From contig PRDJ01000010.1 in NCBI GenBank assembly GCA_003345555.1, forward strand, positions 74,513 to 106,512: a stretch of DNA of 32,000 nucleotides, read 5' to 3'. The notes beneath the pieces are model-generated. The model did no database searches, had not been told where the DNA came from, and worked only from the letters and a program-made list of their open reading frames with translations. The stretch is from Candidatus Thorarchaeota archaeon. GTDB lineage: Archaea > Asgardarchaeota > Thorarchaeia > Thorarchaeales > Thorarchaeaceae. Both the position numbers and the translations under genes were made by a program. Below, one piece after another: positions 2,002 to 31,731 of this stretch (its first letter is position 1; every line of letters begins with the position of its first letter).

Positions 2002-2124
2002 GCGTCTGTAGTCTAGTCACATTAGCTTGAAGACAACCCAACAGGCGGCTAATGAGAGACTAAGGGGCTATGATTGAGCCCTTCCAAGGCTCGGGCCCGG
2101 GTTCGATTCCCGGCAGACGCACCA
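2002..2124 (+). tRNA. tRNA-Gly(TCC) with 48-nt intron at position 14/15
   Basis: Acceptor GCGTCTG/CAGACGC, anticodon arm GAGCC-CTTCCAA-GGCTC, T arm CCGGG-TTCGATT-CCCGG, encoded ACCA. Removing 2016-2063 gives a 75-nt cloverleaf with D arm GTCTAGGGGCTATGAT. Confidence 0.95.
2016..2063 (+). other. BHB tRNA intron (D-arm, 14/15)
   Basis: Central helix AGTC(2010-13)/GACT(2058-61), 3-nt bulges TA|G and AA|G, inner helix TC.CATTAGC/GCTAATG.GA. The boundary can shift by 1 nt because G occurs at both ends. Confidence 0.85.
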
Positions 2125-2202
2125 CCACCATGATATCATCCACTTCGGACTAGTTCTCAGAGTCTCTCGATGCTCTGGGCTCGGTCACGATGAGGTGCTG
2201 AA

Positions 2203-4236
2203 ATGAAGTCCCTGAAACACAACGGTATTTACGTCATTCACCCCCCAGAAACCCATGGTCTCGCGATTCGTGCTCGTGGCAGAGAGCTGACCTTGAATGC
2301 GCTTCAAGAAGAGATGGCGGTAGCTTGGGTGAAGAAGCTCGGCACGCCTTACGTCGATGACCCTGTTTTCGCGAAGAACTTCCTCGCAGACTTCAGCAAG
2401 GAACTGGGTATCAAGCCTCCACTGAAGCTTGAAGAAGTCGATTTCACTCCCGTCCTGCGATTCGTCGAGAAGGATCGCCAACGAAAAAAGAACATGACGA
2501 AAGAAGAGAAGAAGGCAGACCTAGAGCGTAGGAAAGCAGAGCGAGACCGGATGAAACAGCTCTACGGCTATGCTACAGTCGATGGCGAAGCCATGGAGCT
2601 CGCGAACTACATGACAGAGCCCTCCGGCATATTTATGGGGCGAGGACAGCACCCCCTCAGAGGTCGCTGGAAGCACGGTGCTCTCGAAAAAGACATCATC
2701 CTGAACCTTGACCGGAGCGCACCGAGACCGAAGGGCGATTGGGGCGAGATTACTTGGGCGCCCGATTGTATGTGGATTGCGAGGTGGACTGACAAGCTTA
2801 CAGGCAATGGAAAGTACATCTGGCTTCACGATTCGACCCCGATAAAGCAGGAACGAGAAGAGGCGAAATTCGACAAGGCCCTCAAGATGGAAGCCAAAAG
2901 AGAAGAAATCCGTGCTCACATAATGGATGGTCTCCACTCCAATGATCCGAAGCGCAGAGAAGTCGCTGCTGCATGTTATCTGATTGACAGGCTAAGCCTG
3001 CGAGTCGGGGATGAAAAAGACCCTGACGAAGCCGACACCGTCGGTGCCACTACGCTGAGAGCAGAGCACTTGGCATTCAAGAAAGACTCTGTCCAGTTCG
3101 ACTTCTTGGGCAAAGATAGTGTTCCTTGGCACAAGGAGCTGGAGATGCCTGTGGATGTCTACACAGTTTTCAAAGAGCTTCATGATAGAGCGGTTGAAAG
3201 AGTAGATTCCTTCAAAGCCCGTGGGAGCAGCAAGACTGGCGGAGACCCAAAGAAGGCAGCTCAGGTATTTTCGCGTGTGCGTAGCACTGATGTTAACAAG
3301 TTCCTTGGCGAGATAGACCCGGACTTGACAGCCAAGGTATTCCGAACACTTCGTGCTACCGTTACGATTCGGGATGAGCTTGGCAATAGTGGCATCAGAC
3401 GCAGCGACATGGACTTCATCAAGCGGACAGCATTCAAGAGGGCAAACCTTGAGGTTGCTCGGGTAATGAACCATACGAAGCAGGCCCCGAAGGGCTGGGC
3501 TGCGACAGCGAAACGCTACGAATCAAGGATCAAGGCCGCCGAAGAACGAGTTGCCAAAGCAAAGAAGCAGCTTGACGAGAAGAAACGCCGGCTTGCTGAT
3601 GTGAAAAGAAAGCAGGCACCGGGACTTGCGAGAGCTGAGGAGCTTGTCACGAGACAGAAACAACTGGTCGAGAAATACAAAGACTCTGTCTCTCGGTGGA
3701 GAGAGCGGCGCGACAAGGCAAAGGTTGCTTGGGACAACGCTCGAGACGATAGACAACGTACAAGAGTGAGTAACCGAAAGCGAAAGAGAACCAAGAAGGA
3801 GCGACTTGAGGAAGTGGGAGACCGGGTGGACAATCTGAAGCTCAGGCTGGACAAAGCCGAAGAAGGTCTCGTGAAGGCACGTGAACGCTACGAGAAGAGC
3901 AAGGCTGCCCTAGAGAAGAAGGTGGCTGCGCTTGCTTCATCCAAGCAGAAGTCGGCGGAGCAGATTGGCCGAGTCGAGAAGATCGTGAACACCATCAAGG
4001 AGCGAGTCAAGAGGGCTGATGCTGCAAGACAGAAACTGCAGGATGACTACCATATCGCAAAGGACACACGGACATGGAACTTGGGTACGTCCCTCAAATC
4101 CTACATCCATCCTCGAGTAGTGTATGACTGGTGCAGAAAGGTGGATATGGACTGGCGGTCTGTCTATTCAAAGACGCTCCAAAGGAAGTTCACTTGGGTA
4201 GAGCAGCCTCGCTCTGCATCACCCCTGGGGCAATGA
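2203..4236 (+). CDS. DNA topoisomerase IB (eukaryote-like) with extended coiled-coil linker
   Basis: EPSGIFMGRGQHPLRGRWK, LRVGDEKD, FDFLGKDS, AKVFRT, MNH and GTSLKSYIHP (catalytic Tyr) match TopIB motifs; GAGGTG SD upstream. Confidence 0.96.
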   Translation: MKSLKHNGIYVIHPPETHGLAIRARGRELTLNALQEEMAVAWVKKLGTPYVDDPVFAKNFLADFSKELGIKPPLKLEEVDFTPVLRFVEKDRQRKKNMTKEEKKADLERRKAERDRMKQLYGYATVDGEAMELANYMTEPSGIFMGRGQHPLRGRWKHGALEKDIILNLDRSAPRPKGDWGEITWAPDCMWIARWTDKLTGNGKYIWLHDSTPIKQEREEAKFDKALKMEAKREEIRAHIMDGLHSNDPKRREVAAACYLIDRLSLRVGDEKDPDEADTVGATTLRAEHLAFKKDSVQFDFLGKDSVPWHKELEMPVDVYTVFKELHDRAVERVDSFKARGSSKTGGDPKKAAQVFSRVRSTDVNKFLGEIDPDLTAKVFRTLRATVTIRDELGNSGIRRSDMDFIKRTAFKRANLEVARVMNHTKQAPKGWAATAKRYESRIKAAEERVAKAKKQLDEKKRRLADVKRKQAPGLARAEELVTRQKQLVEKYKDSVSRWRERRDKAKVAWDNARDDRQRTRVSNRKRKRTKKERLEEVGDRVDNLKLRLDKAEEGLVKARERYEKSKAALEKKVAALASSKQKSAEQIGRVEKIVNTIKERVKRADAARQKLQDDYHIAKDTRTWNLGTSLKSYIHPRVVYDWCRKVDMDWRSVYSKTLQRKFTWVEQPRSASPLGQ

Positions 4237-4403
4237 TGGGCTGGCTCATGTCCGGAATCCGGCTGGCTTGTTGGTCTTGCTGTCTCCTGAACGAAGCCCA
4301 TACTGAGAATCTGGAAGCTTCATTACGGTCCGACTCCACGTATAACTGACAGAGTCTGTACTGTCTAGTCTTTATTATGGCTCTGGCTGTGAGAGTCTGT
4401 ATC

Positions 4404-4556
4404 ATGCTGAAAGAAGAATGCCCGTATTGCGGAGGCAGACTCATAGAGAAGCACGAGGAAACTAAGGTCGAAAATGGCAAAACAGTTGTCTTCGTGCACT
4501 TCCGCTGTGTGAAATGCGGAAAATGGACAAGGCGGGAACGGATACATCCACCTTGA
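4404..4556 (+). CDS. small Zn-ribbon protein, 50 aa (not in ORF track)
   Basis: MLKEECPYCGGRLIEKHEETKVENGKTVVFVHFRCVKCGKWTRRERIHPP has two CxxCG knuckles. CTTTATTA lies about 27-34 nt upstream; an in-frame ATG also exists at 4377. Confidence 0.7.
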   Translation: MLKEECPYCGGRLIEKHEETKVENGKTVVFVHFRCVKCGKWTRRERIHPP

Positions 4557-4611
4557 CACTGGAAGAGGTCATCTGGCTCGGCTCTCCTGAGATACGAAAT
4601 GAGAAGCGGTG

Positions 4612-5316
4612 CTACAGCTTCACCTCTAGTGACTTTCCCGTGTTTCCCGCAAAGACTGAGAGTCTCGAACCAACACGAACCATTGCAATGCCGCCAAGGT
4701 AAGGCTCGCGGTCGGTCACGACAAGCGGCCTCCCGAGAAGAAATCTCTTGAGGGACATCAGGGAGAGATCGTGAGTGATGTGGATATGCATCACCGGGTC
4801 CGTTGTCGCTATGAGCCGCGATACAGTATCTGAGCACAGTCTTGACTGAAAACTGCCAAACGACTCTATGCCATTACCGAAGAGACCACTTGCCCACTTG
4901 TTGACGAACTCAGTGACATTCCTTCCATCGGGCTGGAGATTCTCCCATATCTTCTCCTCTGAATACTCTGGCGAGAACAGTGTGTCGAGAGATTCAATCC
5001 CGAGTACTCTCCCGCCTGCATCGTTGAATCCCTTCGCGATGAAGTCGGCAGTCTCTGAACACCTGGGCACGAAGCTCGTGAAGATATGAGCCGGTCTCTT
5101 TACCCTGAGCCGGCGTCCCATCTCAAACGAGGTCTTCCTACCAAGCTCTGTAAGCCCTCCTGAGAGCATCTCTGCATAGTCGGCGAGCGTGGTGCGATGC
5201 GAGTGCCTCACTACAAGAGCAATGGGTGTCCCTGGGTCCATGGAGTTGGTCCACTTGACCAAAGCTCTCGCACTAGATAACCAATCAATCGAGTCCCAGT
5301 CCATCGATTCTGACAA
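4612..5316 (-). CDS. histidine phosphatase (phosphoglycerate mutase-like) family protein
   Basis: LVVRHS (RHG-like) motif, LTELGRKTS, SFVPRCSETA and C-terminal HITHD. Confidence 0.8.
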   Translation of the reverse strand: MSESMDWDSIDWLSSARALVKWTNSMDPGTPIALVVRHSHRTTLADYAEMLSGGLTELGRKTSFEMGRRLRVKRPAHIFTSFVPRCSETADFIAKGFNDAGGRVLGIESLDTLFSPEYSEEKIWENLQPDGRNVTEFVNKWASGLFGNGIESFGSFQSRLCSDTVSRLIATTDPVMHIHITHDLSLMSLKRFLLGRPLVVTDREPYLGGIAMVRVGSRLSVFAGNTGKSLEVKL

Positions 5317-5485
5317 GTTCGTTCACTGTCACCCTAGGAAGTCTCTCTGTTTGACTCACTAGTGTCTTTTCAGCCTTTCAGGGCTATCGAGCCAAACCAA
5401 TTCCTTTCAGACTTGAATAGAAGGATGGCGAAGACCGGCAGGTGACTCCCCGTTTGGTTCAGTCTACCGTGAAGAGAATGAGAAA

Positions 5486-5608
5486 TGGTGCGACCACCGG
5501 GACTCGAACCCGGGCCGGATCCGTGGCAGGGATCCATCATAGCCCCTTAGTCAATCGTTAGCTGCCAATTTGGCTGTCTTCATGCTAGCGATTCTAGACA
5601 ATGGTCGC
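5486..5608 (-). tRNA. tRNA-Gly(GCC) with 48-nt intron at position 14/15
   Basis: Acceptor GCGACCA/TGGTCGC, anticodon arm GATCC-CTGCCAC-GGATC, T arm CCGGG-TTCGAGT-CCCGG, ACCA. Removing 5547-5594 gives a 75-nt cloverleaf. Confidence 0.95.
5547..5594 (-). other. relaxed BHB tRNA intron (D-arm, 14/15)
   Basis: Central helix (T)GTC/GAC(T) with one U.U mismatch, bulges TA|G and AA|G, inner helix AATCG.TAGC/GCTA.CGATT; homologous to intron 2016-2063. Confidence 0.85.
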
Positions 5609-5634
5609 AGCAGTTCAGACCGCGGTCCAGTGCG

Positions 5635-5641
5635 TTAAAAA
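5635..5641 (-). promoter_or_regulatory. TATA box of tRNA-Gly(GCC)
   Basis: TTTTTAA on the minus strand at -27 to -33; the same heptamer precedes tRNA-Val(GAC). Confidence 0.5.
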
Positions 5642-5681
5642 GCTTGTCGAAGCACAACGCTCTCGGAGAAGAGGTTCGGCA

Positions 5682-6803
5682 GTGATAACCGAAGTTGATC
5701 AAGGTCCACAATCGGAAGGCCCACCCTTCGCGAAGGAGCGTGCCGAGTGGATCGAGATTGCAAAGGGCATCGGCGTCACATTTGTGATTCTTGTTCATTC
5801 CATGATTCCGGACATCAACCCGGTTACAACCCACCTCAGTAGTTTCACTATTCCCATCTTCTTCATGCTAACTGGACTGACATACGACAATGAGAAGCAC
5901 AGAAACCATCTTGGAGTGTTGGCCAAATTGCGAGCGCGTCAGCTTCTGATTCCGTACTTCTCATTGTACCTGATTATGATAGTGCTGTTCATTCCGTTGT
6001 CGTCGTATGTCGACACGTACTTGACACCGGACCAAGTCTTGTTCTGGCTCCTCTATGGGAACGGTCCCCCAAACTCCGCCAGTCATCTGTGGTTTCTTCC
6101 CGTGCTATACTTTGGACTGATGGCATTTGCCTTGGTTGACAAGATTACGTACCGTCTGTCGAGGGGCTTCAAGTGGGTCGCGCTGATAATCCTCATGCTA
6201 GCCGCAAATACGATTTGGTCAATCTTCCGCCCAGTCCTCATTCCCTGGCGATTCAGTTCAATCCTCATCGCTGCAGCATTTGTGCTCATCGGGAACGAGC
6301 TGCGCCAATCCAGGGGTCTGAAGGCTTTGGCAAGTCAGTCGGCTGCGAAGAACCTCGCTGGAATCTTGGCACTCACTGTCGCAGTTCTGACACTTTCTCA
6401 GCTCAATGGATTTACTGACATGGCCGTCGATAGCTATGGAGCGTGTGTCTGGCTGTATCTGGGTGCAGGAACAGCGGGCTGCCTTCTTGTGTTTCAGGTT
6501 TCGAGTCTGCTTCACAAATCCTCAGCACCAGGAAGGGGCCTTTTCGCTCTCGGCGGAGTATCCCAAGAGGCATACGAAGTTCATCCTGTGACCTTCTACT
6601 TGGTTCCGATAGTAGCGACGAACTTGGGGTTGTCGTTGACCTCAGACCCCACCGTTGGCAGTCTCTTGTGGCTAGTTCGGTTCTTGCTCGGTGTTATACT
6701 CTCATACGTGCTAGCTAGTCGTCTGATAAGAAAGAACAGCATTCTGTCGTTGATTTTCAGCGGAAGGTCTCGCAGTCAAGACTCTACAGTGCCGCAAAGA
6801 TGA
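5682..6803 (+). CDS. acyltransferase family 3 (OafA/YrhL-like) membrane protein
   Basis: RAEWIEIAKGIGVTFVILVH, FTIPIFFMLTG and HLWFLPVLY motifs with about 10 hydrophobic segments. Start moved to GTG 5682 (GAGGT upstream) because ATG 5601 overlaps tRNA-Gly. Confidence 0.85.
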   Translation: MITEVDQGPQSEGPPFAKERAEWIEIAKGIGVTFVILVHSMIPDINPVTTHLSSFTIPIFFMLTGLTYDNEKHRNHLGVLAKLRARQLLIPYFSLYLIMIVLFIPLSSYVDTYLTPDQVLFWLLYGNGPPNSASHLWFLPVLYFGLMAFALVDKITYRLSRGFKWVALIILMLAANTIWSIFRPVLIPWRFSSILIAAAFVLIGNELRQSRGLKALASQSAAKNLAGILALTVAVLTLSQLNGFTDMAVDSYGACVWLYLGAGTAGCLLVFQVSSLLHKSSAPGRGLFALGGVSQEAYEVHPVTFYLVPIVATNLGLSLTSDPTVGSLLWLVRFLLGVILSYVLASRLIRKNSILSLIFSGRSRSQDSTVPQR

Positions 6804-6860
6804 GCGTTCTTGAGACTAGAGTTAAGAGATGACGGATTTCCCTTCTTTCGGGCGTCAATA

Positions 6861-7577
6861 ATGGCAGAGAGCAGGAATCTCCGCAGCCTGAAACGAGAGA
6901 TAATGCGAGAAATCTATGAGAACCGAATGTTGCTGACCGCGAGACGCGATCGTCCTGAAGGTTGGAAGCTGCTATCGGGTGTGTGGAGCCCGTTCTACAT
7001 TCAGCTTCGTGTTCTCAATTCCTTCCCGGCTACACTGAAGAAGGTCGCAGAGGCCATGTCTCTCATGCTAAAGAAGGAGGCTCCTCAGGTCAACAGACTT
7101 GTGGGCGTTGCATTCGCAGGAGTTCCTATAGCAACAGCTCTCTCCATAGTATCTGGCATTCCCGCGTGCCATACTCGAAAGTTCGTAGGCGTGACGACCG
7201 ATGAGGAGCTGCAGAAGGCGCTGACCCAATACGGTCAGCATTCGTTGCTCGAGGGCGAAGTCCAAGAAGGCGACAGGCTCTGCTTGGTTGACGACTTGGT
7301 CACCCAACTCGATGCCAAGCTGATGGCCCGCACCCAGGTCATGTCTGAACTTGAGAAACGTGGAACCAAGAATGTGAAATGCGATGATGTAGCAGTCCTT
7401 ATCGACAGACAGCAAGGTGCAGGTGATCGAGCCAAGGTCTCGGGTATACAGCTGCACACACTAATCAAGTTCATGGACGAGGGTCTGCCGTTGATAAAGG
7501 ATCTAATGCCGCCTGCAGACTACACTACAATCTCCGCATATCTTGCTGACCCGAGCAAATATCAGGGACATGTGTGA
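6861..7577 (+). CDS. pyrE: orotate phosphoribosyltransferase-like type I PRTase
   Basis: LLSGVWSPFYIQLR, LVGVAFAGVPIA, LCLVDDLVT and VLIDRQQG follow the archaeal PyrE layout, but the PRPP and catalytic loops are atypical. Confidence 0.7.
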   Translation: MAESRNLRSLKREIMREIYENRMLLTARRDRPEGWKLLSGVWSPFYIQLRVLNSFPATLKKVAEAMSLMLKKEAPQVNRLVGVAFAGVPIATALSIVSGIPACHTRKFVGVTTDEELQKALTQYGQHSLLEGEVQEGDRLCLVDDLVTQLDAKLMARTQVMSELEKRGTKNVKCDDVAVLIDRQQGAGDRAKVSGIQLHTLIKFMDEGLPLIKDLMPPADYTTISAYLADPSKYQGHV

Positions 7578-8073
7578 ACTCAAGAAGGACGCAATTCAAG
7601 CGGATGCGTGGAGGCCTACTCAGACGAGCGAGAAAAAGAACCCCGTGGAGCGCATGTTGAACCTAGCGCTCGCTACGTCACTCAATCAGTATCAGTTCTA
7701 TCTGGACGCATCATCCACCGTGCAGACCGACGAAATGAAGGAACTGCTGCTTTTTCTGGCAAAGTCTGAAGAAGCAATCATAGACAAGGTCGAATCTATG
7801 ATGTTCACGGGAATAGTCGATGCAGTGGAAGAAGCGCGCACAATTGAAGTGGAGGAACCCGATGAGACCCCCTTCGACCTCATGCGAGCAGAAGTGGACC
7901 CTCGGTTGTTTGTGTGCAACAGAGCATTGAAGATTGCATTGAGCGCGTACACTTTCTATTTGTCAATAGCTGCGAGGGCACACTCTCCGGTGATTAGTCG
8001 TCTCTTCCAGTATCTTGTCTTTTCAAAGGCTGAGCAAATCAAGATGATTCGGTCCGTGTGCGAATCGTTCTGA
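7570..8073 (+). CDS. rubrerythrin/ferritin-fold protein lacking canonical diiron ligands
   Basis: Two internal repeats, LALATSLNQYQFY...KELLLFLAKSEEAI and IALSAYTFY...SRLFQYLVFSKAEQI, mirror the rubrerythrin helix-pair pattern. The ATG overlaps the end of the PRTase gene. Confidence 0.6.
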   Translation: MCELKKDAIQADAWRPTQTSEKKNPVERMLNLALATSLNQYQFYLDASSTVQTDEMKELLLFLAKSEEAIIDKVESMMFTGIVDAVEEARTIEVEEPDETPFDLMRAEVDPRLFVCNRALKIALSAYTFYLSIAARAHSPVISRLFQYLVFSKAEQIKMIRSVCESF

Positions 8074-8225
8074 AAGCCTACGTGCACCACCCGACATTCC
8101 CCTTGTTTGCTGTCTGTTGGAACACGTGTTCCAACAACACCCCGTCTGCGGAGTCTCGAAAAGAAAGACTGAGGAAATAGATTTATATTCATTTGTTTAT
8201 TAGTCATAATGTAGTGTGTAGAAAG

Positions 8226-9384: not shown

Positions 9385-9461
9385 TGGTGGGTCGGACGAG
9401 ACTCGAACTCGTGACCACTGCACTGTCAATGCAGTATCATAGCCGCCTAGACTACCGACCC
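9385..9461 (-). tRNA. tRNA-Val(GAC), intron-less
   Basis: GGGTCGG/CCGACCC acceptor, CTGCA-TTGACAG-TGCAG, ACGAG-TTCGAGT-CTCGT, ACCA; 77 nt. Confidence 0.97.
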
Positions 9462-10070: not shown

Positions 10071-10146
10071 TGGTGCAGACGGCCGGATTTGAACCAGCGA
10101 CAGCAGGATCTTCAGTCCTGCGCTCTCCCAACTAAGCTACGTCTGC
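10071..10146 (-). tRNA. tRNA-Phe(GAA), intron-less
   Basis: GCAGACG/CGTCTGC, CAGGA-CTGAAGA-TCCTG, GCTGG-TTCAAAT-CCGGC, ACCA; 76 nt. Confidence 0.97.
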
Positions 10147-14408: not shown

Positions 14409-14513
14409 TGGTGGACCGGGCGGGATTTTTGGGCCCGAAGCTGGAAGTCAGTTCCGGAGAACCCGTGACCTCTTCCATGCCAAGGAAGCGATCTACCACT
14501 GATCTACCGGCCC
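14409..14513 (-). tRNA. tRNA-Ala(GGC) with 30-nt T-loop intron at 56/57
   Basis: GGGCCGG/CCGGTCC acceptor with the G3.U70 Ala determinant, CTTCC-TTGGCAT-GGAAG, ACCA. Removing 14429-14458 restores T loop TTCAAAT (75 nt). Confidence 0.95.
14429..14458 (-). other. relaxed BHB tRNA intron (T-loop, 56/57)
   Basis: Central helix GGGT/GCCC, bulges TC|T and AA|A, inner helix CCGGA/TTCGG; no outer helix. Confidence 0.85.
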
Positions 14514-16255: not shown

Positions 16256-18175
16256 TTATCTCAGCTTCGCACTCTCAGTGACGGTGAGGGCTTTCGTTTC
16301 GATGTTCAACGCCTTGTGGATGGTAGAAGCGAGATTCATGCACTTTGTGGCCTCACCATGACATGTCAGTATCATTTCAGGTACTGGACTCACTCTCTTG
16401 ACGAAACTCAGAATCTGTTTTCTGTCTGAGTGACCAGAGAAGCCTTCCACGGTCTCGACGGTCAAGTTCACCGGGACCACAGTCACGTTGCCTTCGCGAT
16501 TGCGCATCTGTATTTCTTTCCATCCCTTCTGAACTCTGCGTCCAAGTGTTCCTTCGCCCTGGTAGCTAACAAAGACAACTGCATTATTGACATCTGGGGC
16601 TAGGAGTCTGAAATAGTCAACACTGGGACCGCCTGCAAGCATACCTGACGTGGCCATGATTATGCAGGGCTCACCTGCAACGATTTGTTCGCGTTGATCA
16701 GGATTATCGACTTGAGTGAATATCTCATTCAAGAACGGGTTCACGCCTTGATGGAATATCTTCTCCCGTATTTTCTTGCTAAGCGCCTCAGGATGGGTGG
16801 TGTGTATCGCAGTAGCCTGAGCTATCATCCCCTCAATATAGACCGGAACCTTCGGGATACGGCCTGTGGTGACAAGATCCTCTAGCACGAGCATGATTTC
16901 CTGTGCACGCCCAACTGCAAGCACGGGTATGAGCACCTTTCCTCTTCTTTCAATCGTCCTCTTTATCACGGACGCAAACTTCCTTTCGACTTCTTGCCTC
17001 GGCGCCATCTTGTCGGTGGGGTGACCGTACGTGCTTTCTATAATAAGAGTCTCCAATCTCGGGAAGGTGAATGTTGCTGGTTCCAAGAGTCTTGTTCTTC
17101 CGAACTTGAAGTCGCCAGTATATGCGAGATTGTACTGGCCGTCCCCTACATGAAGGTGAACGATTGCAGACCCAAGAATATGACCTGCATTGTGCAATGT
17201 GAGTCTGACATCAGGAGCAATGTCAGTGACCTCACCATAGTTCAGAGGTATGGTATGGATTATGCCCTCCTTGACATCCCGGTCTCTGTAGGGTCTCAAT
17301 TTTCCTTCTCGTTCAGCGACCTCCAAGTAGTCTAGCTGAAGCAGAGTTGACAAGTTCAATGTTGGTGCTGTCATGTAGACAGGACCGCGGTATCCGTACT
17401 TGAAGAGGAACGGAACCATTCCACAGTGATCTAGGTGTGCATGGCTGACTATGACCGCATCCAGCTTGTCTATATTCAGCTCTGGCATATCGAGTCGTGG
17501 AAAGGCCCTGTCGGGTGCTCCCACGTTGACGCCGCATTCTAGAAGAATGTTGGTTTCGCTTGTCTGCAGCAGCATGCACTGCCTACCGACTTCGCGGAAA
17601 CCGCCAAGGGCTGTCAATCTTATCCAGCCATTATCAATGAGAATCGGGCGATGAATTCTCCTGCCTATTTCTCGAAACACTTTGTTGCGGGTCGCAGATT
17701 CAGTCTGTACTATGTAACGTATCTGCTTGATTAGTTTGCTCTCCATCGGTGGTGTTCGCATCACGTTGGGCCGCCAGAATGTCTGTCGCGTGATTTCCCT
17801 GAGGGTAATCCCGTTCCTTCCTATAACGAGGCCGGGTTTCTGAGCTTCGATGACCACTTCGCCGCGTGAATCGTCGAAGTCGATCGACGTAATCTCTGCT
17901 TCTGTGGGCACGAGTTCACGAACTGCTTTCTCAGCGTCCTCATGTGGTAAACGGACCTCAGGTGCTGACCGTACCACGATACGCTTCCTCATCTTGCGTG
18001 CCAGCGCCTTGATCCTGTCGCCGTCATCAAGTAATATCTTGGGAGCTTTCGAATAGATCGCTATCTCAGGTCCCTCATACTCAACTGAGCTTATGGCCGC
18101 TGAGCGAGGCAGAGATTTCATGACTGCCTCTCTAACATCGGTGACTTCCTTCTCTTCTCCGTTCTCAGAATTCAT
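16256..18175 (-). CDS. aCPSF1/FttA KH-domain metallo-beta-lactamase beta-CASP ribonuclease
   Basis: N-terminal KH domains, GGFREVGR, SHAHLDHCG, HNAGHILGS, YTGDF, ESTYG, GFSGHSD and HGE; next to psmB. Confidence 0.96.
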   Translation of the reverse strand: MNSENGEEKEVTDVREAVMKSLPRSAAISSVEYEGPEIAIYSKAPKILLDDGDRIKALARKMRKRIVVRSAPEVRLPHEDAEKAVRELVPTEAEITSIDFDDSRGEVVIEAQKPGLVIGRNGITLREITRQTFWRPNVMRTPPMESKLIKQIRYIVQTESATRNKVFREIGRRIHRPILIDNGWIRLTALGGFREVGRQCMLLQTSETNILLECGVNVGAPDRAFPRLDMPELNIDKLDAVIVSHAHLDHCGMVPFLFKYGYRGPVYMTAPTLNLSTLLQLDYLEVAEREGKLRPYRDRDVKEGIIHTIPLNYGEVTDIAPDVRLTLHNAGHILGSAIVHLHVGDGQYNLAYTGDFKFGRTRLLEPATFTFPRLETLIIESTYGHPTDKMAPRQEVERKFASVIKRTIERRGKVLIPVLAVGRAQEIMLVLEDLVTTGRIPKVPVYIEGMIAQATAIHTTHPEALSKKIREKIFHQGVNPFLNEIFTQVDNPDQREQIVAGEPCIIMATSGMLAGGPSVDYFRLLAPDVNNAVVFVSYQGEGTLGRRVQKGWKEIQMRNREGNVTVVPVNLTVETVEGFSGHSDRKQILSFVKRVSPVPEMILTCHGEATKCMNLASTIHKALNIETKALTVTESAKLR

Positions 18176-24154: not shown

Positions 24155-25531
24155 TTAAGCATTATGGTCCGTTTCCGGGCCATGTATTGAAAGTACCGTC
24201 AGTTCGACGCACACGCACCCCGAATGCAAGATTTCGGACAATGAGGGAGTAGTCCTGCCGTTGTCTCCAGAGATAAGTTCCTTAACATAGGTTCCTCCTT
24301 GAACCTTGAAAGTTCCCTGTATGAGACCGTTGTCTGTGCTGGTGAGTTGTACTTCGTACACCCACTTCTTTCTAACAAGATCTCTCCTACGATGTGATAC
24401 ACGAGTCGGAGTCCTCTGATTTATCTCCACACCCGAGAGACCAGTTTCGGCTTCGCGCAGAGCCTCATCAGTCGGAATCTCGTCAACTCTAATCAGGGCT
24501 AAGTACTCCTTGATATTGTGTGACGCTTCATGCTTTAGTCTCTGTGCGTATTCTCGCTCTGTGTACTGAAGGTCTGAGACTTCTACCTTGCCTGCCGCCT
24601 GCTGATTGATTGTTTGAGTTACAGTGTCAAGATCCAGAGACCGTATCCGGGGTTCGGAGATTTCAACGACAAAAGGGCGGCCCCCGCCTAGCATCAGTGC
24701 GTCGATATCCTCCCTGCCCGCTGCATGGAACTTGAAACGGCTGCCATTTGCAGCGGTTTGAACGGGAATTCCGACATACTCCGAGACAGAGTCGGGATAT
24801 CTCCTGCCCGTGCCGCCACACGATTCACAGCCTTTCCCCCTGCATGCGGTGCAATCCCATCTGCTCTGAGGAATGCCTCTTACGAGCTTCCGATAGCATC
24901 CGTAGACGAATAGCGGGTTGATTTGGAGGTTCAAGGAATCCAATGCCATATCATAGACGATAACAAGCTCAGGACGCTCAAAGTTGGCTTCTCTACCGAG
25001 CGCTCTCTGGGCCTGTTTTCCCAACTCTCGGTTGAGGTCTCCTCTGAGAGGTTCTCCTCGAAGAAGGCCGTGACGTGCTCTCAGCTCGTCTTCCCGCTCT
25101 GCGACGCTCGGTATGGGCGTACATCCGACCAAGAAAGTGTCGAATTCGATGTCTCTTGTCTCCTCAACGATTCTCCCTACTATCGCAGGGATTCTGTCAA
25201 AGATGCTCTCTCCATTGACGAAACAAAGATAACACTTCTCAACTGTATCGTGCTCAATTCCATTCTTGCTGGCGAGAATCCTGGCAGGTTCGAACATTCC
25301 ATTGCCGGCCAGATTGGTGAGAAGTCTCACGCCGCTTTCTCTTTCACCAGACTTCAACAGCTCATCAGCTTTCATCGAAAGCAGGAGCTTAATCGACCTG
25401 CCGCGTTCACGATTCGAGGTACCAGTGCTCAGCCACGCAAACTGACGACCTAAGCACTGATCACAGAGAGGATACTGGCTAAGTAGCTGGTCCGCGACTT
25501 CCAAGGGATCTCTCATTTGTGAATCTCCCAT
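24155..25531 (-). CDS. pus10: tRNA pseudouridine 54/55 synthase Pus10
   Basis: LCDQCLGRQF, YRKLVRGIPQSRW, FHAAGREDIDALMLG and QGGTYVKELISGDNGRT. Confidence 0.96.
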   Translation of the reverse strand: MGDSQMRDPLEVADQLLSQYPLCDQCLGRQFAWLSTGTSNRERGRSIKLLLSMKADELLKSGERESGVRLLTNLAGNGMFEPARILASKNGIEHDTVEKCYLCFVNGESIFDRIPAIVGRIVEETRDIEFDTFLVGCTPIPSVAEREDELRARHGLLRGEPLRGDLNRELGKQAQRALGREANFERPELVIVYDMALDSLNLQINPLFVYGCYRKLVRGIPQSRWDCTACRGKGCESCGGTGRRYPDSVSEYVGIPVQTAANGSRFKFHAAGREDIDALMLGGGRPFVVEISEPRIRSLDLDTVTQTINQQAAGKVEVSDLQYTEREYAQRLKHEASHNIKEYLALIRVDEIPTDEALREAETGLSGVEINQRTPTRVSHRRRDLVRKKWVYEVQLTSTDNGLIQGTFKVQGGTYVKELISGDNGRTTPSLSEILHSGCVCVELTVLSIHGPETDHNA

Positions 25532-25553: not shown

Positions 25554-26798
25554 TCAACCGCGGGTATGCCACATAAAGCTGTTCTTCGATATAGGGCTGA
25601 GTTGGCGAATCACCCGGAGACCAAGGCGGATCGCGCGAGGGTCAGTGAGAAGGCTTCTTATGATTCCCCATTGCATATCCATATCGCCTTCTCTTTCGAT
25701 TTTCTGAAGCAGGCCAAGCTCACTCGTTCCTCGTACTAGAACATCCATGCCTTGGTCCGACAGTGACACCAATGCTCTTTGTGCCAGAAACATGGCCCGA
25801 AGGTTACTCATAAACAGAGAGCGCCAGGCCATCTGGTATCGTTCGAGAAACCTCTCTGAACAATCTTTCTCTGAGATTGCCAATGATGCAACCTTGCCTG
25901 CGATAGTTCCGGCCATGCCGCCGATAATCACGCCTCCTCCAGTTGTGGCCTTCACCATTCCCGCAGCGTCTCCTGCCACTAGTATTCCCGACGCGTATGT
26001 CTTTCTGATTGGCATGCCGACAAGAACTGTGCCCCCGAAGGTTCTATCAATCGAAGCTCGTGAGAATCTCTCACTCATGATAGGATGATGTTCAATAACT
26101 GCATTCAAGCGCGTCTTTGCTGCACTGAATGCTGCCAGACCGACTCTTGCTCGGCCATCTCCAAGAGGAATGTTCCATGCAAAGAACCCCGGGGCGACTT
26201 GTCTGCCATAATACATCTCGGCGACATTATCATCAACCTCCGCTCCCCGCATCTCATACTGATAGGCAGGATACTTGTTTGTTCTTGGCACAATTGGCAG
26301 TCCAACCGACTTTGAGAGTCTGCAGACAGCTCCTTCCGCATTGATTACGATAGCGGCGCGATAGTGCTCTGTTGCTCCACCATGTTGTACCGATACTCCG
26401 GTTATCTTGCCATTCTGCATATTCAGTGAACGAACCTGGGCCCCTGTGATGACGACCGCTCCGCTATCTTGAGCCCTGTCCGCAAGCCACATGTCGAACC
26501 TGTGTCTGTCCACAACAACAGCCTCGCGACGACCCCGCTCGATTAGCAGAGAGTTGCCCGAGGGTGAATAGACTCTTGCTCCGCGTACCGTGTTCAGAAT
26601 CACATCTTGAGGCGGCTTTAGTCCGAGTGACCTTAGACCTGACAGGCTAAGAAGGCCTGCGCAGTGGTCCGGTTCTCCAATGCTGCGATGTTCTTCAAGA
26701 ACAATTACATCGTGACCGTTCCCTGCTATTGTGGCTGCAGCAAGCAAACCGGCTGGTCCTGCACCTACAACAATGGCATCGTGGTCTAGACTCGTCAT
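25554..26798 (-). CDS. geranylgeranyl reductase family FAD-dependent oxidoreductase
   Basis: DAIVVGAGPAG Rossmann motif, HCAG, DRHRFD, GFFAWNIP, VAGDAAGMVKATTGGGV. Start set at ATG 26798 (the track start overlaps pth2). Confidence 0.88.
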   Translation of the reverse strand: MTSLDHDAIVVGAGPAGLLAAATIAGNGHDVIVLEEHRSIGEPDHCAGLLSLSGLRSLGLKPPQDVILNTVRGARVYSPSGNSLLIERGRREAVVVDRHRFDMWLADRAQDSGAVVITGAQVRSLNMQNGKITGVSVQHGGATEHYRAAIVINAEGAVCRLSKSVGLPIVPRTNKYPAYQYEMRGAEVDDNVAEMYYGRQVAPGFFAWNIPLGDGRARVGLAAFSAAKTRLNAVIEHHPIMSERFSRASIDRTFGGTVLVGMPIRKTYASGILVAGDAAGMVKATTGGGVIIGGMAGTIAGKVASLAISEKDCSERFLERYQMAWRSLFMSNLRAMFLAQRALVSLSDQGMDVLVRGTSELGLLQKIEREGDMDMQWGIIRSLLTDPRAIRLGLRVIRQLSPISKNSFMWHTRG

Positions 26799-26864
26799 CG
26801 CATCTAGTAGAGCTACTAGCACCTTTTTATCTGTCGTCTTACTTGGCTCCACAGTGATAACCAG

Positions 26865-27245
26865 ATGGCAGCCAACGCGACGCCTAGGCTCTTCAGATAC
26901 AAACAGGTAATTGCAGTGAGAACTGACTTGGATATGAGCCGAGGGAAGATTGCAGTTCAGGTGGCACATGGCGCTCTGAGCGCTGCAGAGCGTGCAAGAG
27001 TCACTCGTCAGGATGTCTGGAAGGCCTGGTTGGATGAGGGACAGAAGAAGGTTGCCGTGAAAGTTGCATCAGAGAAGGATCTGCTGGATCTGAAACGTCT
27101 AGCCGTCGTTCACAGGCTGCCAAATGCGTTGATTCGGGACGCGGGGATGACCGAGCTTCCACCCGGTACAATCACGGTTGTTGGAATTGGTCCTGCCCTT
27201 TCCGAGGAAATCGACAAGGTGACTGGCAGTCTCAAGCTGCTTTGA
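26865..27245 (+). CDS. pth2: peptidyl-tRNA hydrolase Pth2
   Basis: KQVIAVRTDLDMSRGKIAVQVAHG...GQKKVAVKV...IRDAGMTELPPGTITVVGIGP...KLL. Confidence 0.97.
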   Translation: MAANATPRLFRYKQVIAVRTDLDMSRGKIAVQVAHGALSAAERARVTRQDVWKAWLDEGQKKVAVKVASEKDLLDLKRLAVVHRLPNALIRDAGMTELPPGTITVVGIGPALSEEIDKVTGSLKLL

Positions 27246-27254
27246 GGGAATGCA

Positions 27255-28601
27255 GTGCAGCCCGCACATCCTCTTGAACAGAGCATCGGCATGGAGTTCT
27301 ACTGCACCGACACTCCCGGCATCGGTGGGCGTCTTAGAAGTCGTTTCGAGGACTTTGTGGTTGAGGAAATCACGCCAACAGGTAACATCTTGGAAGTGAA
27401 AGAGTGGCCGACTGAGGCCATGGTCGGTGAGAAAGAACCTATCCAAGGTACGCCATCCAAGTATGTCCAGCTCACTGTCCAGAAGATGGGTCTGTCTACT
27501 CTGGACCTAGCGACTATTGTGGCCGCTGCCACAAAGGTTCCGAGGCATCTGGTGAGCTATGCTGGCCTCAAAGACAAACGGGCTGTTACAGTACAAGTAA
27601 TGTCTCTGCCTGCACATGCATTCAAATCGTTGGAGCAGACTCATCTATCAAGAATTGCAATCCGTGCTCCTCAGTATGTTCGTCGCCCAGTAAGAGTTGG
27701 CGATTTATGGGGTAACCGTTTCACCGTGTTGCTTAGAGGTATGGAAGCCGACTGTAACACTGCACTTGCCTTGGCCGATTCTCTTGGGCGTCAATCGATA
27801 CTCAACTACTTTGGAGTGCAGAGGTTTGGTGTCACTAGACCGTTCACATACCTCATAGGAAAGTCATTGGTGAAGAAAGACTACGATGGAGCGGTCCGAA
27901 TGATGCTCTCAAGAGTGATTCCCGAAGAGCAAGTCGAGTCGGTCGAGAGGCAACTAGGGGCAGCTGAGGACTTGGCTCCCGAAGAGGTTTCTTCAGACTC
28001 GTCGTCAAATGGGGTGTTGTACGAACGGGCAGTAGCACAATATCTTGCTAAGCATCCGGGTGACTACTTTGGAGCCATGACCAAGGTCGCTCCCCGGGTC
28101 TTAACAATTCTAGTACATTCGTATCAATCCTACCTGTTTAACCGATTGATAAGTCTGCGTGCAAAGAATGGCCTATCGATCCATGAGCCAGAGCCCGGCG
28201 ATTTCTTAATTCAGCTTGACCAGACACACTCGGGAAGAGACTCTTGGTTGTTTGTCACCGAGCGAAAACTTGAGGAATGCAGGAGATTGGTTGAGTCGGG
28301 CAGTCATGGCCTTGCAGCTCCCGTGCCCGGATACTCAACCAAGATACCGCCATCCAGACAATCAGATTTGCTGAAGCAGATTCTGAGGGCAGAGGGCCTC
28401 TACCTGAGGGAGTTCAGAAACGTTCAGGTGAGGTCGTTAGATTCGCCCGGCGGTCTACACCTGGTGTCAATCCAGCCAATTGGGATGAAGGCACAATGCG
28501 ATGGTGACTGCCTCATGCTTAGATTCAGTCTCAGAAAAGGTTCCTACGCCACTGTTGTTCTTCGTGAACTAATGAAGGCCGATCCAACGGGCCTTGCCTA
28601 G
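27255..28601 (+). CDS. truD: tRNA pseudouridine 13 synthase TruD
   Basis: EDFVVEE, YAGLKDKRAVTVQ, GNRFTV, NYFGVQRFG, YQSYLFN and GSYATVVLRE. Confidence 0.96.
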   Translation: MQPAHPLEQSIGMEFYCTDTPGIGGRLRSRFEDFVVEEITPTGNILEVKEWPTEAMVGEKEPIQGTPSKYVQLTVQKMGLSTLDLATIVAAATKVPRHLVSYAGLKDKRAVTVQVMSLPAHAFKSLEQTHLSRIAIRAPQYVRRPVRVGDLWGNRFTVLLRGMEADCNTALALADSLGRQSILNYFGVQRFGVTRPFTYLIGKSLVKKDYDGAVRMMLSRVIPEEQVESVERQLGAAEDLAPEEVSSDSSSNGVLYERAVAQYLAKHPGDYFGAMTKVAPRVLTILVHSYQSYLFNRLISLRAKNGLSIHEPEPGDFLIQLDQTHSGRDSWLFVTERKLEECRRLVESGSHGLAAPVPGYSTKIPPSRQSDLLKQILRAEGLYLREFRNVQVRSLDSPGGLHLVSIQPIGMKAQCDGDCLMLRFSLRKGSYATVVLRELMKADPTGLA

Positions 28602-29185
28602 CGTCTGGCTTGTCTTCGAGTGAAGTCCTTCATCCTCTGCTCGAAATCATCGGATGACGCCTTTGACTTCTTGGGGGTTCCTTCCTCTTGGTACTGGAAT
28701 ATCGCCTGCTCTTCCATGACTGCAGTCACGATTCGTCTCAGGTCTTCGAGAGAGTATCCAATCCTGGGTCTGTCCTCTGCGCGGAGCATGACTACATTCT
28801 CCCTCGATCCGTCCGGAAGATACAGACTATTCACGCCGGTCTCAATTGCTGGATGAATGAGCTCCCTCACGAGTTTCCTGAGATTGGCTGGCCGTTCAAG
28901 AATAACAACTTCACCGTATGTTGCTCTCAATTCCTCAAGCAGGTCAGGCAGTGATAGTAGGATGTCCCTGCCTTTCTTATTGACAACCAGAACAAGCCTG
29001 CTTGATACGTTTAGAGCCCCGAAGAGGGTGAGGTCCTCAATGGCCGGGAACTGCTCTTGTCGTGTGAGAATCCATTTCGAGAAATCGACATCGAATTGAG
29101 TTATCTGTCCGCTGTCGAGTTTCTTTTGGCAATCAGAGCACAAGATGTCAGAATCAAGGTCGGCTACGCACACTGGCAGATGCAT
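28598..29185 (-). CDS. archaeal NusA-like (NusA2-type) KH protein with N-terminal Cys motif
   Basis: MHLPVCVADLDSDILCSDCQKKLDSGQITQFDV resembles the archaeal NusA-paralogue N-terminus. Start set at ATG 29185. Confidence 0.7.
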   Translation of the reverse strand: MHLPVCVADLDSDILCSDCQKKLDSGQITQFDVDFSKWILTRQEQFPAIEDLTLFGALNVSSRLVLVVNKKGRDILLSLPDLLEELRATYGEVVILERPANLRKLVRELIHPAIETGVNSLYLPDGSRENVVMLRAEDRPRIGYSLEDLRRIVTAVMEEQAIFQYQEEGTPKKSKASSDDFEQRMKDFTRRQARR

Positions 29186-29260
29186 TATAGGATTCCTCGC
29201 CCATGGAGTGCGCCAAGTGTGGCCGGCTTCCAGGCGAGGATCATGCAATACTCAAGTTAC

Positions 29261-29572
29261 TCATCGTGCGAGAGTTATATCTATAGTCGAGACGTTGAGG
29301 TCGGTACCCTTCTCTGTTTGTACAGTTGTAGTACCAATCGTGATTGACGCGACTTTGAGTTCCGATATGAATCGGTGTCGTGTTATTTCAGCAACATCCA
29401 CTGCTCTACTAATGAGACGTCCTCTCGCCTTTATGGTGACTTCTGTAGCTCCTTTGTTGAAGAGGGTCACGCAGGCCAGAACGTAACTCATTACATTCTT
29501 GGCTCCGACTAAGATGGTCGATTTTGGCTTGCTCTTGCCAAGGTCTTCACTGTCGGTGTTCTCCTCTGTCAC
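29261..29572 (-). CDS. albA: chromatin/RNA-binding protein Alba
   Basis: ILVGAKNVMSYV...IKARGRLISRAVDVAE...VSTIDITL. Confidence 0.96.
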   Translation of the reverse strand: MTEENTDSEDLGKSKPKSTILVGAKNVMSYVLACVTLFNKGATEVTIKARGRLISRAVDVAEITRHRFISELKVASITIGTTTVQTEKGTDLNVSTIDITLAR

Positions 29573-29876
29573 CAGAAGCTTACCAACCTGCCGTCACTCA
29601 TTTGGGCATATGCTTTACTCGAGGCGCTTCTAATATTGATTTCGATTGCCAGATGCGCATATCCGGCGTGACCGCATTAATCATCGCATCACGGGACCGA
29701 AGCAGTCTCTCGGCAAATGACTTTAGAGACTTGATATGACCTTTGTCGACTCTAACATTCGTGTCATCTAGGACCACGACTGGACTGCTTACCGATTCGG
29801 TGTTCCAGATTCGAGCTCACCATTGCGGAAGGCTTTTTTCTGACAATCGGGGCCTCTGAAATGGGATCTATGAGTA

Positions 29877-31142
29877 ATGGTAAGATTGACCTTTCTGGGC
29901 TCATGCAGAGAGATAGGACGTTCCGGTTTCCACCTTCAGGAGCATAATGAAAGCATCCTGATAGACTACGGTGTGAAGCTTCTAGAGAACCCTGTCTTCC
30001 CGAGTCGTGTGCCTACCGATGACCTTCAAGGAATCGCACTCACGCATGCCCATCTTGATCATTCAGGTGGGCTTCCTCTCTTGCTCACTCACGATGACGT
30101 CTCACTCTTTTGTACGCCTGCTACACGAGACTTGAGCACAGTCCTGCTTGACGATATGTATGAGCTCTCAAAGGCGCGTCTGCCGTTTTCAGGCAAAGAC
30201 ATCGCACGACTCGAACGACAGTGCCAGCCAACCGCGTATGAAGAGACGATTCCGCTCGGACGCCATTTCGAAATCACTCTATTCAACGCTGGTCACATTC
30301 CAGGTAGTGCGATGGTATCCGTAAGGTGTGATACAAAACGGATACTATTCACGGGTGATTTCAACTCGATTGAAACACAGCTGAATGCCGGAGCTAGGAA
30401 GAATCTGCCCAAGCACGACATCGTGGTGACCGAGAGTACCTATGCTCAGAGGGTCAATCCGAAGAGAGAAGAAATCGAAGAAGAGTTCATTCAGTCAGTC
30501 ACGGAGACCTTACAGCGTGGGGGTACTGTACTCATTCCTGCTTTTGCTGTGGGACGCAGCCAAGAAATAATGTGCATCTTCGAGAAATACAACTTGCCTG
30601 GAAAGTACACGGTCTATGTTGATGGTCTGGCCAGAAAGGTCAATGAAGTTGTGATTAAGCACCCAGGCTACATTGCATCTCCACAAGCGTTCGAGAGAGC
30701 AGTTGAAAGGACTCGGATTGTCTATGACGACCGGGACCGTTTCACGGCAATGAAGAAGGGTGGAGTAATCATCTCTCCCGCAGGGATGCTCAAGGGTGGT
30801 CCCTCGCATCTCTACTTCAGAATGCTCCACGACGACCCGAGGAACTCCATAGTCCTTGTGAGCTTCCAGATTCCGGGAACGCCTGGAGCCGAATTGCTTG
30901 CCAAGCGCAAAGTGACGGTGAATAACAAACTCTTTGATGTGGCCGCAGATGTCAGATTTCACCATCTGAGCAGTCATTCTGATGCTGATGGCTTGATGGA
31001 CGTCTTGGAGAAAATTCCCGGGGATCCAGAATTCTACTGTGTGCACGGCGAACCTGATTCATGTGACGCACTGGCCGAGAAACTAGGCAACATTGGAAGA
31101 CGAGCACACGTGCCAGAGACAAACGATGCAATAGAGGTCTAG
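29877..31142 (+). CDS. metallo-beta-lactamase beta-CASP RNase lacking KH domains (aCPSF2-like)
   Basis: GSCREIGRSG, THAHLDHSG, NAGHIPGS, TGDF, ESTY, SSHSD and VHGE. Confidence 0.92.
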   Translation: MVRLTFLGSCREIGRSGFHLQEHNESILIDYGVKLLENPVFPSRVPTDDLQGIALTHAHLDHSGGLPLLLTHDDVSLFCTPATRDLSTVLLDDMYELSKARLPFSGKDIARLERQCQPTAYEETIPLGRHFEITLFNAGHIPGSAMVSVRCDTKRILFTGDFNSIETQLNAGARKNLPKHDIVVTESTYAQRVNPKREEIEEEFIQSVTETLQRGGTVLIPAFAVGRSQEIMCIFEKYNLPGKYTVYVDGLARKVNEVVIKHPGYIASPQAFERAVERTRIVYDDRDRFTAMKKGGVIISPAGMLKGGPSHLYFRMLHDDPRNSIVLVSFQIPGTPGAELLAKRKVTVNNKLFDVAADVRFHHLSSHSDADGLMDVLEKIPGDPEFYCVHGEPDSCDALAEKLGNIGRRAHVPETNDAIEV

Positions 31143-31149
31143 TACGAAA

Positions 31150-31362
31150 CTACTCTTCGGCCTCAGGCTTTGCTTCCACAACTTGGCACTTCACTTGCTG
31201 AAGAATGTCCTCGGCTTGCTGGGGCTCGACAATCAATGTGTAGAGATACTTAGGAGTCCGAAGCTTTAGCTTGACCTGATTAGCACCTCTCCTGACTCGA
31301 CACTCAGTCGCGCTCTCTGTCATCTCGAGGAATCGTGCCACATCCGTGATTATTCTTGGCAT
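31150..31362 (-). CDS. rpl38e: 50S ribosomal protein L38e
   Basis: MPRIITDVARFLEM...KLKLRTPKYLYTL matches the L38e pattern MPxxIxDxxxFL...KxRxxxYLYTL. Confidence 0.9.
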   Translation of the reverse strand: MPRIITDVARFLEMTESATECRVRRGANQVKLKLRTPKYLYTLIVEPQQAEDILQQVKCQVVEAKPEAEE

Positions 31363-31582
31363 TTGTAGGCCTCTTGTTGTTGTACAAGTGACCGGGAGCG
31401 ATTCCCTTCGCTCCAGCCCTTCAGTACTTGCCTTGACATTCGCATTATAAGAATGTCGGAATGTCGTGCTGAGATGCTTACATACGTTAGGACTGCGTCC
31501 TACTCCAAGACCCGATGAACGCGCTTGAGTTTTTGTTCTGTGACGAGCTCCCTAGATGAGGAATGTGGTGGGCAGGGAGGGA

Positions 31583-31613
31583 ATTCCGATAGACAGGGCG
31601 ACCCTGGACTATT
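31583..31613 (-). other. BHB tRNA intron (T-loop, 59/60), 31 nt
   Basis: Outer helix is the T stem, central TTCG/CGGA, bulges AG|A and AT|T, inner ATAG/CTAT plus hairpin CAGGG-TCG-CCCTG. Confidence 0.88.
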
Positions 31614-31628
31614 CTCGAACCCTCGACA

Positions 31629-31661
31629 GAGGCGGGCAGACTTACGCGAGGGCATCTGCCT
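31629..31661 (-). other. BHB tRNA intron (variable loop, 44/45), 33 nt
   Basis: Central GGCG/CGCC, bulges GA|A and TC|T, inner GGCAGA/TCTGCC, 2-bp outer helix AC/GT. Confidence 0.88.
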
Positions 31662-31731
31662 TCCGCCGTGTGAAGGCGGCATCATAACCGGGCTAGATCA
31701 CCTGCCCTAGACTGGCGAAGGAATCGGCTGG

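Follow-up and report, generated by a model that had tools for sequence, protein, structure and literature searches.

Introduction

The closest described systems to the locus reported here are the intron-rich tRNA genes of other Asgard archaea and of Thermoproteales. Kaneta et al. (2018) predicted tRNA genes in four Asgard metagenome-assembled genomes (MAGs), including Thorarchaeota SMTZ1-83, and found that the tRNA splicing endonuclease EndA is of the (αβ)2 type and carries the L1 loop across Asgard and TACK archaea (PMC5829648). In Atabeyarchaeia and Freyarchaeia, 92–95% of tRNA genes contain introns, often at non-canonical sites (Valentin-Alvarado et al., 2024; PMC11291895). According to a recent preprint, whose main text does not contain the word "Thor", tRNAscan-SE misses 30% of such Asgard inserts, mostly in the D arm, and intron gains are many and recent (Goswami et al., 2026; bioRxiv 10.64898/2026.10.13.758758). 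Non-canonical and multiple tRNA introns and their transposition between tRNA genes have been described in Thermoproteales (Sugahara 2008; Fujishima 2010; both as related in PMC4090602 and bioRxiv 10.64898/2026.10.13.758758). Here, we analyze a 32,000-nucleotide stretch of a Thorarchaeota genome, hereafter the window, in which four of six tRNA genes are interrupted by five inserts.

We conclude, with a probability of about 0.9, that tRNA-Gly(UCC), Gly(GCC), Ala(GGC), and Val(CAC) are each encoded by one of these four genes, which would be functional, present in one copy, and interrupted by one or two bulge–helix–bulge (BHB) introns that would be spliced by EndA and the ligase RtcB.

Materials and Methods

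The window is G000:C10:74513-106512, where G000 denotes the MAG (2.28 Mb, 82 contigs, 93% complete, 3.4% estimated contamination); genomes G018, G028, and G029 are congeneric with it. BHB candidates were enumerated with our own solver and spliced out, and the product was threaded on a cloverleaf and evaluated by a measure of pairing and conserved bases with a maximum of 33. The tRNA census and the position labels come from this solver and from reading by eye; the solver timed out on several multi-intron relatives, which were read by eye. In the shuffle test, the exons were kept fixed and each intron was shuffled in 2000 trials, with central-helix and inner-helix pairing scored at the exact boundaries.

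Results

Five introns outside position 37/38

The interrupted genes are those for Gly-TCC, Gly-GCC, Ala-GGC, and Val-CAC, and none of their five introns lies at 37/38; all six tRNA genes of the window have an encoded CCA according to the solver. A first-pass annotation made from the sequence had placed the introns at 14/15 in both Gly genes, at 56/57 in Ala-GGC, and at 44/45 and 59/60 in Val-CAC, each in a 3-4-3 BHB or a relaxed BHB motif, and had stated that excision restores a standard cloverleaf. The solver arrived at the same positions and found a motif at every boundary, and the spliced products reached 32 of 33; the intronless genes reached 32 in one case and 33 in the other. ARAGORN identified the spliced products as Gly(tcc), Gly(gcc), Ala(ggc), and Val(cac).

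The geometry of the motifs is classical: four exon bases pair with intron positions n-5 to n-2, a bulge of 3 nt is present on either strand, and the predicted cut follows the second bulge base. The central helix has 4/4 bp in four introns and 3/4 in Gly-GCC. Both flanking helices, h and h', are present in the two Val-CAC introns, which makes these motifs strict, while h' alone is present in Gly-TCC, Gly-GCC, and Ala-GGC, whose motifs are of the relaxed HBh' type. For each of the five introns, shuffled sequences equaled the observed pairing in no more than 0.6% of the trials. In the unconstrained minimum free energy (MFE) fold computed with ViennaRNA, the motif is recovered for Ala-GGC and Gly-GCC and, in part, for Val-CAC. 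The exact predicted spliced junctions are seen in the intronless orthologues that BLAST and inspection identified in related genomes.

It should be noted that both ARAGORN and Infernal missed or mis-called the four interrupted genes, as the first-pass annotation had warned of default tools. Default ARAGORN reported three tRNAs in the window, one of them (Gly-GCC, 5486-5562) with a false 5' end, and when introns were allowed, it mistyped Gly-TCC as Leu(aag). The Rfam tRNA model gave full-length matches for Phe-GAA and Val-GAC only, a truncated match of 29.4 bits for Gly-GCC, and 28.6 bits for Ala-GGC, under the cut-off of 29; on Gly-TCC, Rfam produced weak sub-threshold matches to the tmRNA family and nothing else. 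Val-CAC was reported neither by ARAGORN nor by Rfam at any threshold used.

The 48-nt D-loop introns of the glycine genes

Owing to a repeated A, the sequence alone leaves two readings of the Gly insertion point, 13/14 and 14/15, and the latter was chosen on the basis of the bulge geometry. In Gly-TCC, the central helix AGUC/GACU is formed by exon nucleotides 9–12 and the intron, the bulges are UAG and AAG, and the inner helix consists of 2+7 bp with one A-A mismatch. The incomplete central helix of Gly-GCC has a U-U outer pair and is followed by an inner helix of 5+4 bp; the unconstrained MFE fold of this precursor contains 3/4 of the central-helix and 5/6 of the inner-helix pairs and leaves all six bulge bases unpaired.

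In more than 15 genomes of the family, the D arm of the Gly genes is intronless (GTCTAGGGGCTATGAT), and the junction GTCTA/GGGGCTATGAT (a slash marks the junction here and below) is as predicted. Among the congeners, Gly-GCC is intronless in G018 and G029, and the Gly-TCC intron recurs in G028 in a gene with 96% identity. In other genera, an unrelated-looking 30-nt intron is found at 14/15 of Gly-GCC.

The two Gly introns of the window are homologous, with 34/48 identical positions, no gaps, and z = 6.8 relative to shuffles, and the 48-nt intron may have been copied between these two isoacceptor genes, which are 3.4 kb apart. When the three Gly genes with 48-nt introns were aligned, 4/10 inner-helix pairs were changed on both sides and 93% of the inner-helix cells were paired, as compared with 28–40% of cells over the whole structure in a slid-partner control. 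Compensatory changes have remodelled the outer part of the inner helix, with conservation of its apical part.

We considered whether the conserved loop of the Gly introns (UGAAGACA) could hold a box C/D guide or a K-turn and rejected this, as inspection by eye revealed no CUGA D box and no tandem G-A, and there was no Rfam match. Pairing of the Gly introns (GCNUGAAGACA) with the Arg-TCT intron was also rejected: the exact antisense match is 8 nt, and matches of at least 8 nt occurred in 195/200 shuffles over all intron pairs, which is the chance level. A second isoacceptor pair sharing an intron is formed by Thr-CGT (G000:C10:59772-59879) and Thr-TGT (C63:11639-11746), with homologous 36-nt canonical introns (z = 6.7).

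Two strict introns in Val-CAC

In the 44/45 motif, the 3' strand of the anticodon stem takes part in the central helix GGCG/CGCC, the bulges are GAA and UCU, and the inner helix has 6–7 bp. In the 59/60 motif, the T stem serves as the outer helix, the central helix is UUCG/CGGA, and the bulges are AGA and AUU. Both introns are present in G018 and G029, where the BHB helices are invariant and the loops have diverged. G028 lacks both: its Val-CAC gene reads GGCGGATGTC, with the junction GGCGGA/TGTC and an uninterrupted T arm.

The Ala-GGC intron and a family of 30-nt hairpins

The T-loop intron of Ala-GGC has the central helix GGGU/GCCC, the bulges UCU and AAA, and an inner hairpin. The gene is intronless in G028 and in MAG MFD04408.bin.2.157, where the T-loop TTCAAAT shows the junction TTC/AAAT. 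A route to further Ala-GGC orthologues through the neighbouring aCPSF1 gene yielded a tRNA within 4 kb at only 2/80 loci. In G018, the Ala-GGC gene (G018:C9:1-62) is cut by the contig end just past TTCGAAAACC, which suggests an insert at another T-loop position than in G000.

The intron is 26/30 identical to a T-loop intron in Leu(CAG) of the congener G018, both at 56/57, while neither Leu-CAG of G000 nor Ala-GGC of G028 has a 56/57 intron. The G018 Leu(CAG) gene (G018:C22:34300-34649, minus strand) carries, besides the 30-nt intron, a further insert in the variable-arm region, and its contig ends right past the gene start. With the truncated Ala-GGC gene, this points to tRNA introns as places where contigs may break in these MAGs.

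Related 30-nt introns occur at 56/57 of Lys-CTT in several other genera, and within G000 the Ala intron resembles those of Tyr (z = 5.7) and Pro-CGG (z = 4.5). The common layout is one bulge base, a covarying stem of 9 bp, an A-W-U-U-C-like pentaloop, four exon-pairing bases, and two bulge bases. In an alignment of ten members (A3), 7/9 stem pairs covary, a score reached by 0/500 shuffles, and the core conservation of this alignment is inflated and partly circular because its members were partly found through the conserved core. The T-loop introns of Lys-CTT, which form an unbiased set, show covariation in the apical stem as well and semi-conservation of the pentaloop only. A scan with the family pattern at one mismatch gave about 42 matches, as compared with about 12 for the reversed pattern; most lie outside tRNA genes and were taken as chance, and only matches inside resolved tRNA genes were kept. 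The 5' part of Lys(CTT) has two to five matches within a few kb per contig, that is, repeated partial copies, in several Thorarchaeota genomes (G072:C244, G027:C216, G026:C176, G076:C33, and G058:C1).

The Ala intron is a member of this covarying family of 30-nt hairpins, which spans tRNA types and suggests copying of introns between tRNA genes, as described for Thermoproteales; such copying is plausible, and not proven. Going further, we put at slightly less than even odds the proposal that Thorarchaeota harbour actively spreading minimal 30-nt hairpin introns, resident at 56/57 of Lys(CUU) in several genera and copied to Ala(GGC) here and to Leu(CAG) in the congener. Possible further copies are those in Tyr and Pro(CGG) of G000 and in Thr(GGU) of G003. 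The near-universal T-arm flanks (GGGTTC ... AATCCC) would permit such movement by short-homology gene conversion or by reverse splicing.

Genome-wide load, copy number, and turnover

The pervasive non-canonical splicing system foreseen from the window is borne out by the census of G000, which as a lower bound (several expected isoacceptors, Asn, Glu-UUC, and initiator Met among them, are missing, and the solver missed at least one gene, Arg-GCG) comprises 41 resolved tRNA genes, 30 of them interrupted, with 33 introns, 11 at 37/38 and 22 elsewhere. Seven of the non-canonical introns lie in the D-loop, eight in the T-loop, and the rest in stems and the variable loop. ARAGORN recognised 40/40 genes after splicing and 15/40 before. 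The 3' CCA is encoded in 39/41 resolved genes and is lacking in Ser-CGA (C50) and in a second, intronless Leu-CAA (C40). The tRNA-Arg(GCG) gene (region G000:C42:13297, plus strand) has a 30-nt intron at 56/57 and was missed by ARAGORN and Rfam as well; it lies about 0.5 kb downstream of an intronless tRNA-Arg(CCG) gene, and the exons of the two are nearly identical.

Second copies of the four isoacceptors were not found in the 93%-complete assembly by BLAST with each gene, Rfam, or ARAGORN, and the interrupted genes must therefore supply the Gly(UCC), Gly(GCC), Ala(GGC), and Val(CAC) tRNAs.

Within the genus, the introns turn over: G028 is without the Ala and both Val-CAC introns and has the Gly-TCC intron, while G018 and G029 combine the Val-CAC introns with an intronless Gly-GCC. 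Judged from this distribution, the introns are evolutionarily young or unstable, and at least some of them appear to have been copied between tRNA genes. The three clearest homologous intron pairs within G000 have 63–75% similarity, and the best pair across tRNA types (87%) spans two congeneric genomes.

Splicing enzymes

G000 contains one RtcB and two EndA paralogues (Pfam tRNA_int_endo) on different contigs, α on C57 and β on C63. The α subunit (188 aa) has the catalytic subunit of Aeropyrum pernix as its nearest solved relative (E = 1e-45, end-to-end alignment) and carries the catalytic-His motif GIDHAPF, the His of which is aligned with the substituted residue of a solved H-to-A variant. 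Its segment GQPVGIRK43PKSAEFDKP aligns with A. pernix GQPLDVEK44PRGADFEGP, so that Lys43 corresponds to Lys44, the residue named as the lysine of the crenarchaea-specific loop (CSL) (PMC5829648). The β subunit (232 aa) has Thr at the position of the catalytic His (M. jannaschii His125). The catalytic α subunit with the CSL/L1 lysine, the His-less β subunit, and the single RtcB point to an enzyme of the (αβ)2 type, in line with the broad-specificity EndA that the first-pass annotation had expected. That it would cleave relaxed motifs outside the anticodon loop we infer from the 22 non-canonical introns in sole-copy genes.

Genomic setting

The coordinates of the tRNA genes and introns are given in Table 1. 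Judged from its proteins, the source genome is a member of Thorarchaeota (Asgard). The first-pass guess of a probably Asgard genome was correct, because the aCPSF1/FttA protein of the window shares 82–96% identity with those from dozens of MAGs that bear the title Candidatus Thorarchaeota and because the window encodes a eukaryote-type topoisomerase IB. The latter (677 aa; Pfam Topoisom_I_N, Topoisom_I, Topo_C_assoc) occupies positions 2203-4236 (plus strand), between the two tRNA-Gly genes. RNA-processing genes are interleaved with the tRNA genes: aCPSF1/FttA, Pus10, a TruD-type pseudouridine synthase, and a second beta-CASP RNase, at 16256-18175 (-), 24155-25531 (-), 27255-28601 (+), and 29877-31142 (+).

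Table 1. Positions of tRNA genes and their predicted introns in the window.
Feature	Position	Strand	Exons, basis, and remarks
tRNA-Gly(TCC) gene, encoded CCA	2002-2124	+	exons 2002-2015, 2064-2124; solver and ARAGORN on spliced product
Gly-TCC intron, 48 nt, 14/15 (D-loop), relaxed HBh'	2016-2063	+	solver; shuffle p = 0.006
tRNA-Gly(GCC) gene, encoded CCA	5486-5608	-	exons 5595-5608, 5486-5546; solver and ARAGORN on spliced product
Gly-GCC intron, 48 nt, 14/15	5547-5594	-	solver
tRNA-Val(GAC)	9385-9461	-	intronless; ARAGORN, Rfam, solver
tRNA-Phe(GAA)	10071-10146	-	intronless; ARAGORN, Rfam, solver
tRNA-Ala(GGC) gene, G3:U70, encoded CCA	14409-14513	-	exons 14459-14513, 14409-14428; solver and ARAGORN on spliced product
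Ala-GGC intron, 30 nt, 56/57 (T-loop), relaxed HBh'	14429-14458	-	solver; shuffle p = 0.001; MFE fold recovers motif
tRNA-Val(CAC) gene, encoded CCA	31566-31707	-	exons 31662-31707, 31614-31628, 31566-31582; solver and ARAGORN on spliced product
Val-CAC intron, 33 nt, 44/45 (variable loop), strict hBHBh'	31629-31661	-	solver; shuffle p = 0.0005
Val-CAC intron, 31 nt, 59/60 (T-loop), strict hBHBh'	31583-31613	-	solver; shuffle p = 0.006

Discussion

In the model that we favour, the four exon bases beside each insertion would pair in the precursor with four bases close to the intron's 3' end, giving a central helix between two 3-base bulges. The D-loop, variable-loop, and 56/57 introns would borrow one strand of the D, anticodon, or T stem for this helix, and the precursor would therefore not yet be a cloverleaf. 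A heterotetrameric (αβ)2 EndA with a crenarchaeal-type specificity loop on its catalytic subunit would cut after the second base of each bulge; RtcB would ligate the exons and probably circularise the intron, and the D, anticodon, and T stems would re-form after ligation to give the cloverleaf. Cleavage, ligation, and the substrate range of EndA are proposed here by analogy with the A. pernix enzyme and with published Asgard analyses.

The same inserts could be viewed as small insertions that have inactivated the tRNA genes, their function being provided by other copies or by wobble decoding. Pseudogenes would account for the failure of default tools on the four genes and for the appearance and disappearance of insertions among close relatives. 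We consider them very improbable, since no additional gene with any of these anticodons turned up, the exons are undamaged and retain full pairing, the Ala G3:U70 identity pair, and encoded CCA, a splice motif beyond shuffle expectation accompanies every insertion, the helices are maintained through compensatory changes, and about three quarters of the tRNA genes of the genome are interrupted in the same way. Chimeric joins or foreign contigs arising in metagenome assembly or binning deserve hardly any credence, even in a MAG of 82 contigs with 3.4% estimated contamination: the same introns recur at identical sites in independently assembled congeners (Gly-TCC in G028, both Val-CAC introns in G018 and G029), and a single contig of 106 kb, with neighbouring genes of Thorarchaeota type, carries all six tRNA genes. 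Recurrence in independent assemblies, intronless orthologues with exact junctions, and compensatory changes thus argue against artefacts and pseudogenes together.

It is also unlikely, if somewhat less so, that the inserts are real and are either kept in the D-loop or T-loop of the mature tRNA or processed by nucleases other than EndA, without RtcB. The 3-4-3 geometry with correctly placed bulges in all five inserts and the presence of matching enzyme genes (EndA α, EndA β, and RtcB) speak against it, and from established tRNA structure, the L-shape would lose its contacts between D-loop and T-loop if a 48-nt hairpin followed A14 or if the T-loop held 30 extra nt. In its favour are the relaxed form of three motifs and the report that some Asgard D-arm inserts are without a canonical motif, with none shown to be spliced (bioRxiv 10.64898/2026.10.13.758758).

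Certain observations weigh against splicing of single-copy genes by EndA and RtcB. Folded without constraints, the Gly-TCC precursor has its MFE structure in a shifted register, and for Val-CAC intron 1 the MFE structure contains another inner helix. The outer exon helix is absent in 3/5 motifs, the cleavage of which would depend on a broad EndA specificity. Finally, with 93% completeness of the assembly, an intronless copy on the missing DNA is conceivable.

Heavily interrupted Asgard tRNA genes and the EndA type are already published, and the window is a further example, not new in kind because both are described in PMC5829648, PMC11291895, and bioRxiv 10.64898/2026.10.13.758758. With it, the published picture of heavy Asgard reliance on EndA/RtcB splicing gains a case from Thorarchaeota. 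In practical terms, default tools would miss, truncate, or mistype four essential tRNAs in the window and about three quarters genome-wide; because they fail on interrupted genes, tRNA counts of Thorarchaeota MAGs are underestimates. The most useful part is comparative, namely the same genes with and without introns in one genus and one family across tRNA types. This set offers concrete, datable events of gain, loss, and transfer and bears on how archaeal tRNA introns arrive, a question named as open in recent literature. If true, the 30-nt family would be direct evidence of intron copying between Asgard tRNA genes, a route that was sought in the 2026 census of other Asgard families and not detected there (bioRxiv 10.64898/2026.10.13.758758).

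Comparison with known systems

The Thorarchaeota genome resembles the published Asgard cases in its many short BHB introns, most of which lie outside 37/38, in genes that hold several introns, in D-arm introns missed by annotators, in a two-subunit EndA with the L1/CSL loop, and in repeated recent gains. Among published genomes, the intron-rich ones come from Atabeyarchaeia and Freyr-/Jordiarchaeia and have about 2.2 introns per gene, whereas the present one has about 0.8. The 2026 preprint found almost no intron families across tRNA types in its focal families, whereas at least one cross-type family is seen here.

The enzyme resembles the (αβ)2 EndA of A. pernix (PDB 3P1Z, 3AJV) in the alignment of the α subunit, the GIDHAPF motif, the CSL lysine, and the separate His-less β subunit. 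Its β subunit, whose function is predicted, differs in its greater length, 232 aa as read, and in an acidic extension at the N-terminus, and by sequence it is nearer to the M. kandleri and M. jannaschii chains than to crenarchaeal β chains.

In Thermoproteales, too, introns interrupt the D, variable, and T regions, motifs of the relaxed HBh' type are cut by an (αβ)2 EndA with the CSL, and related introns occur across tRNA genes. They belong, however, to a different phylum, and the similarity of introns within G000 is lower (63–75% in the three clearest pairs).

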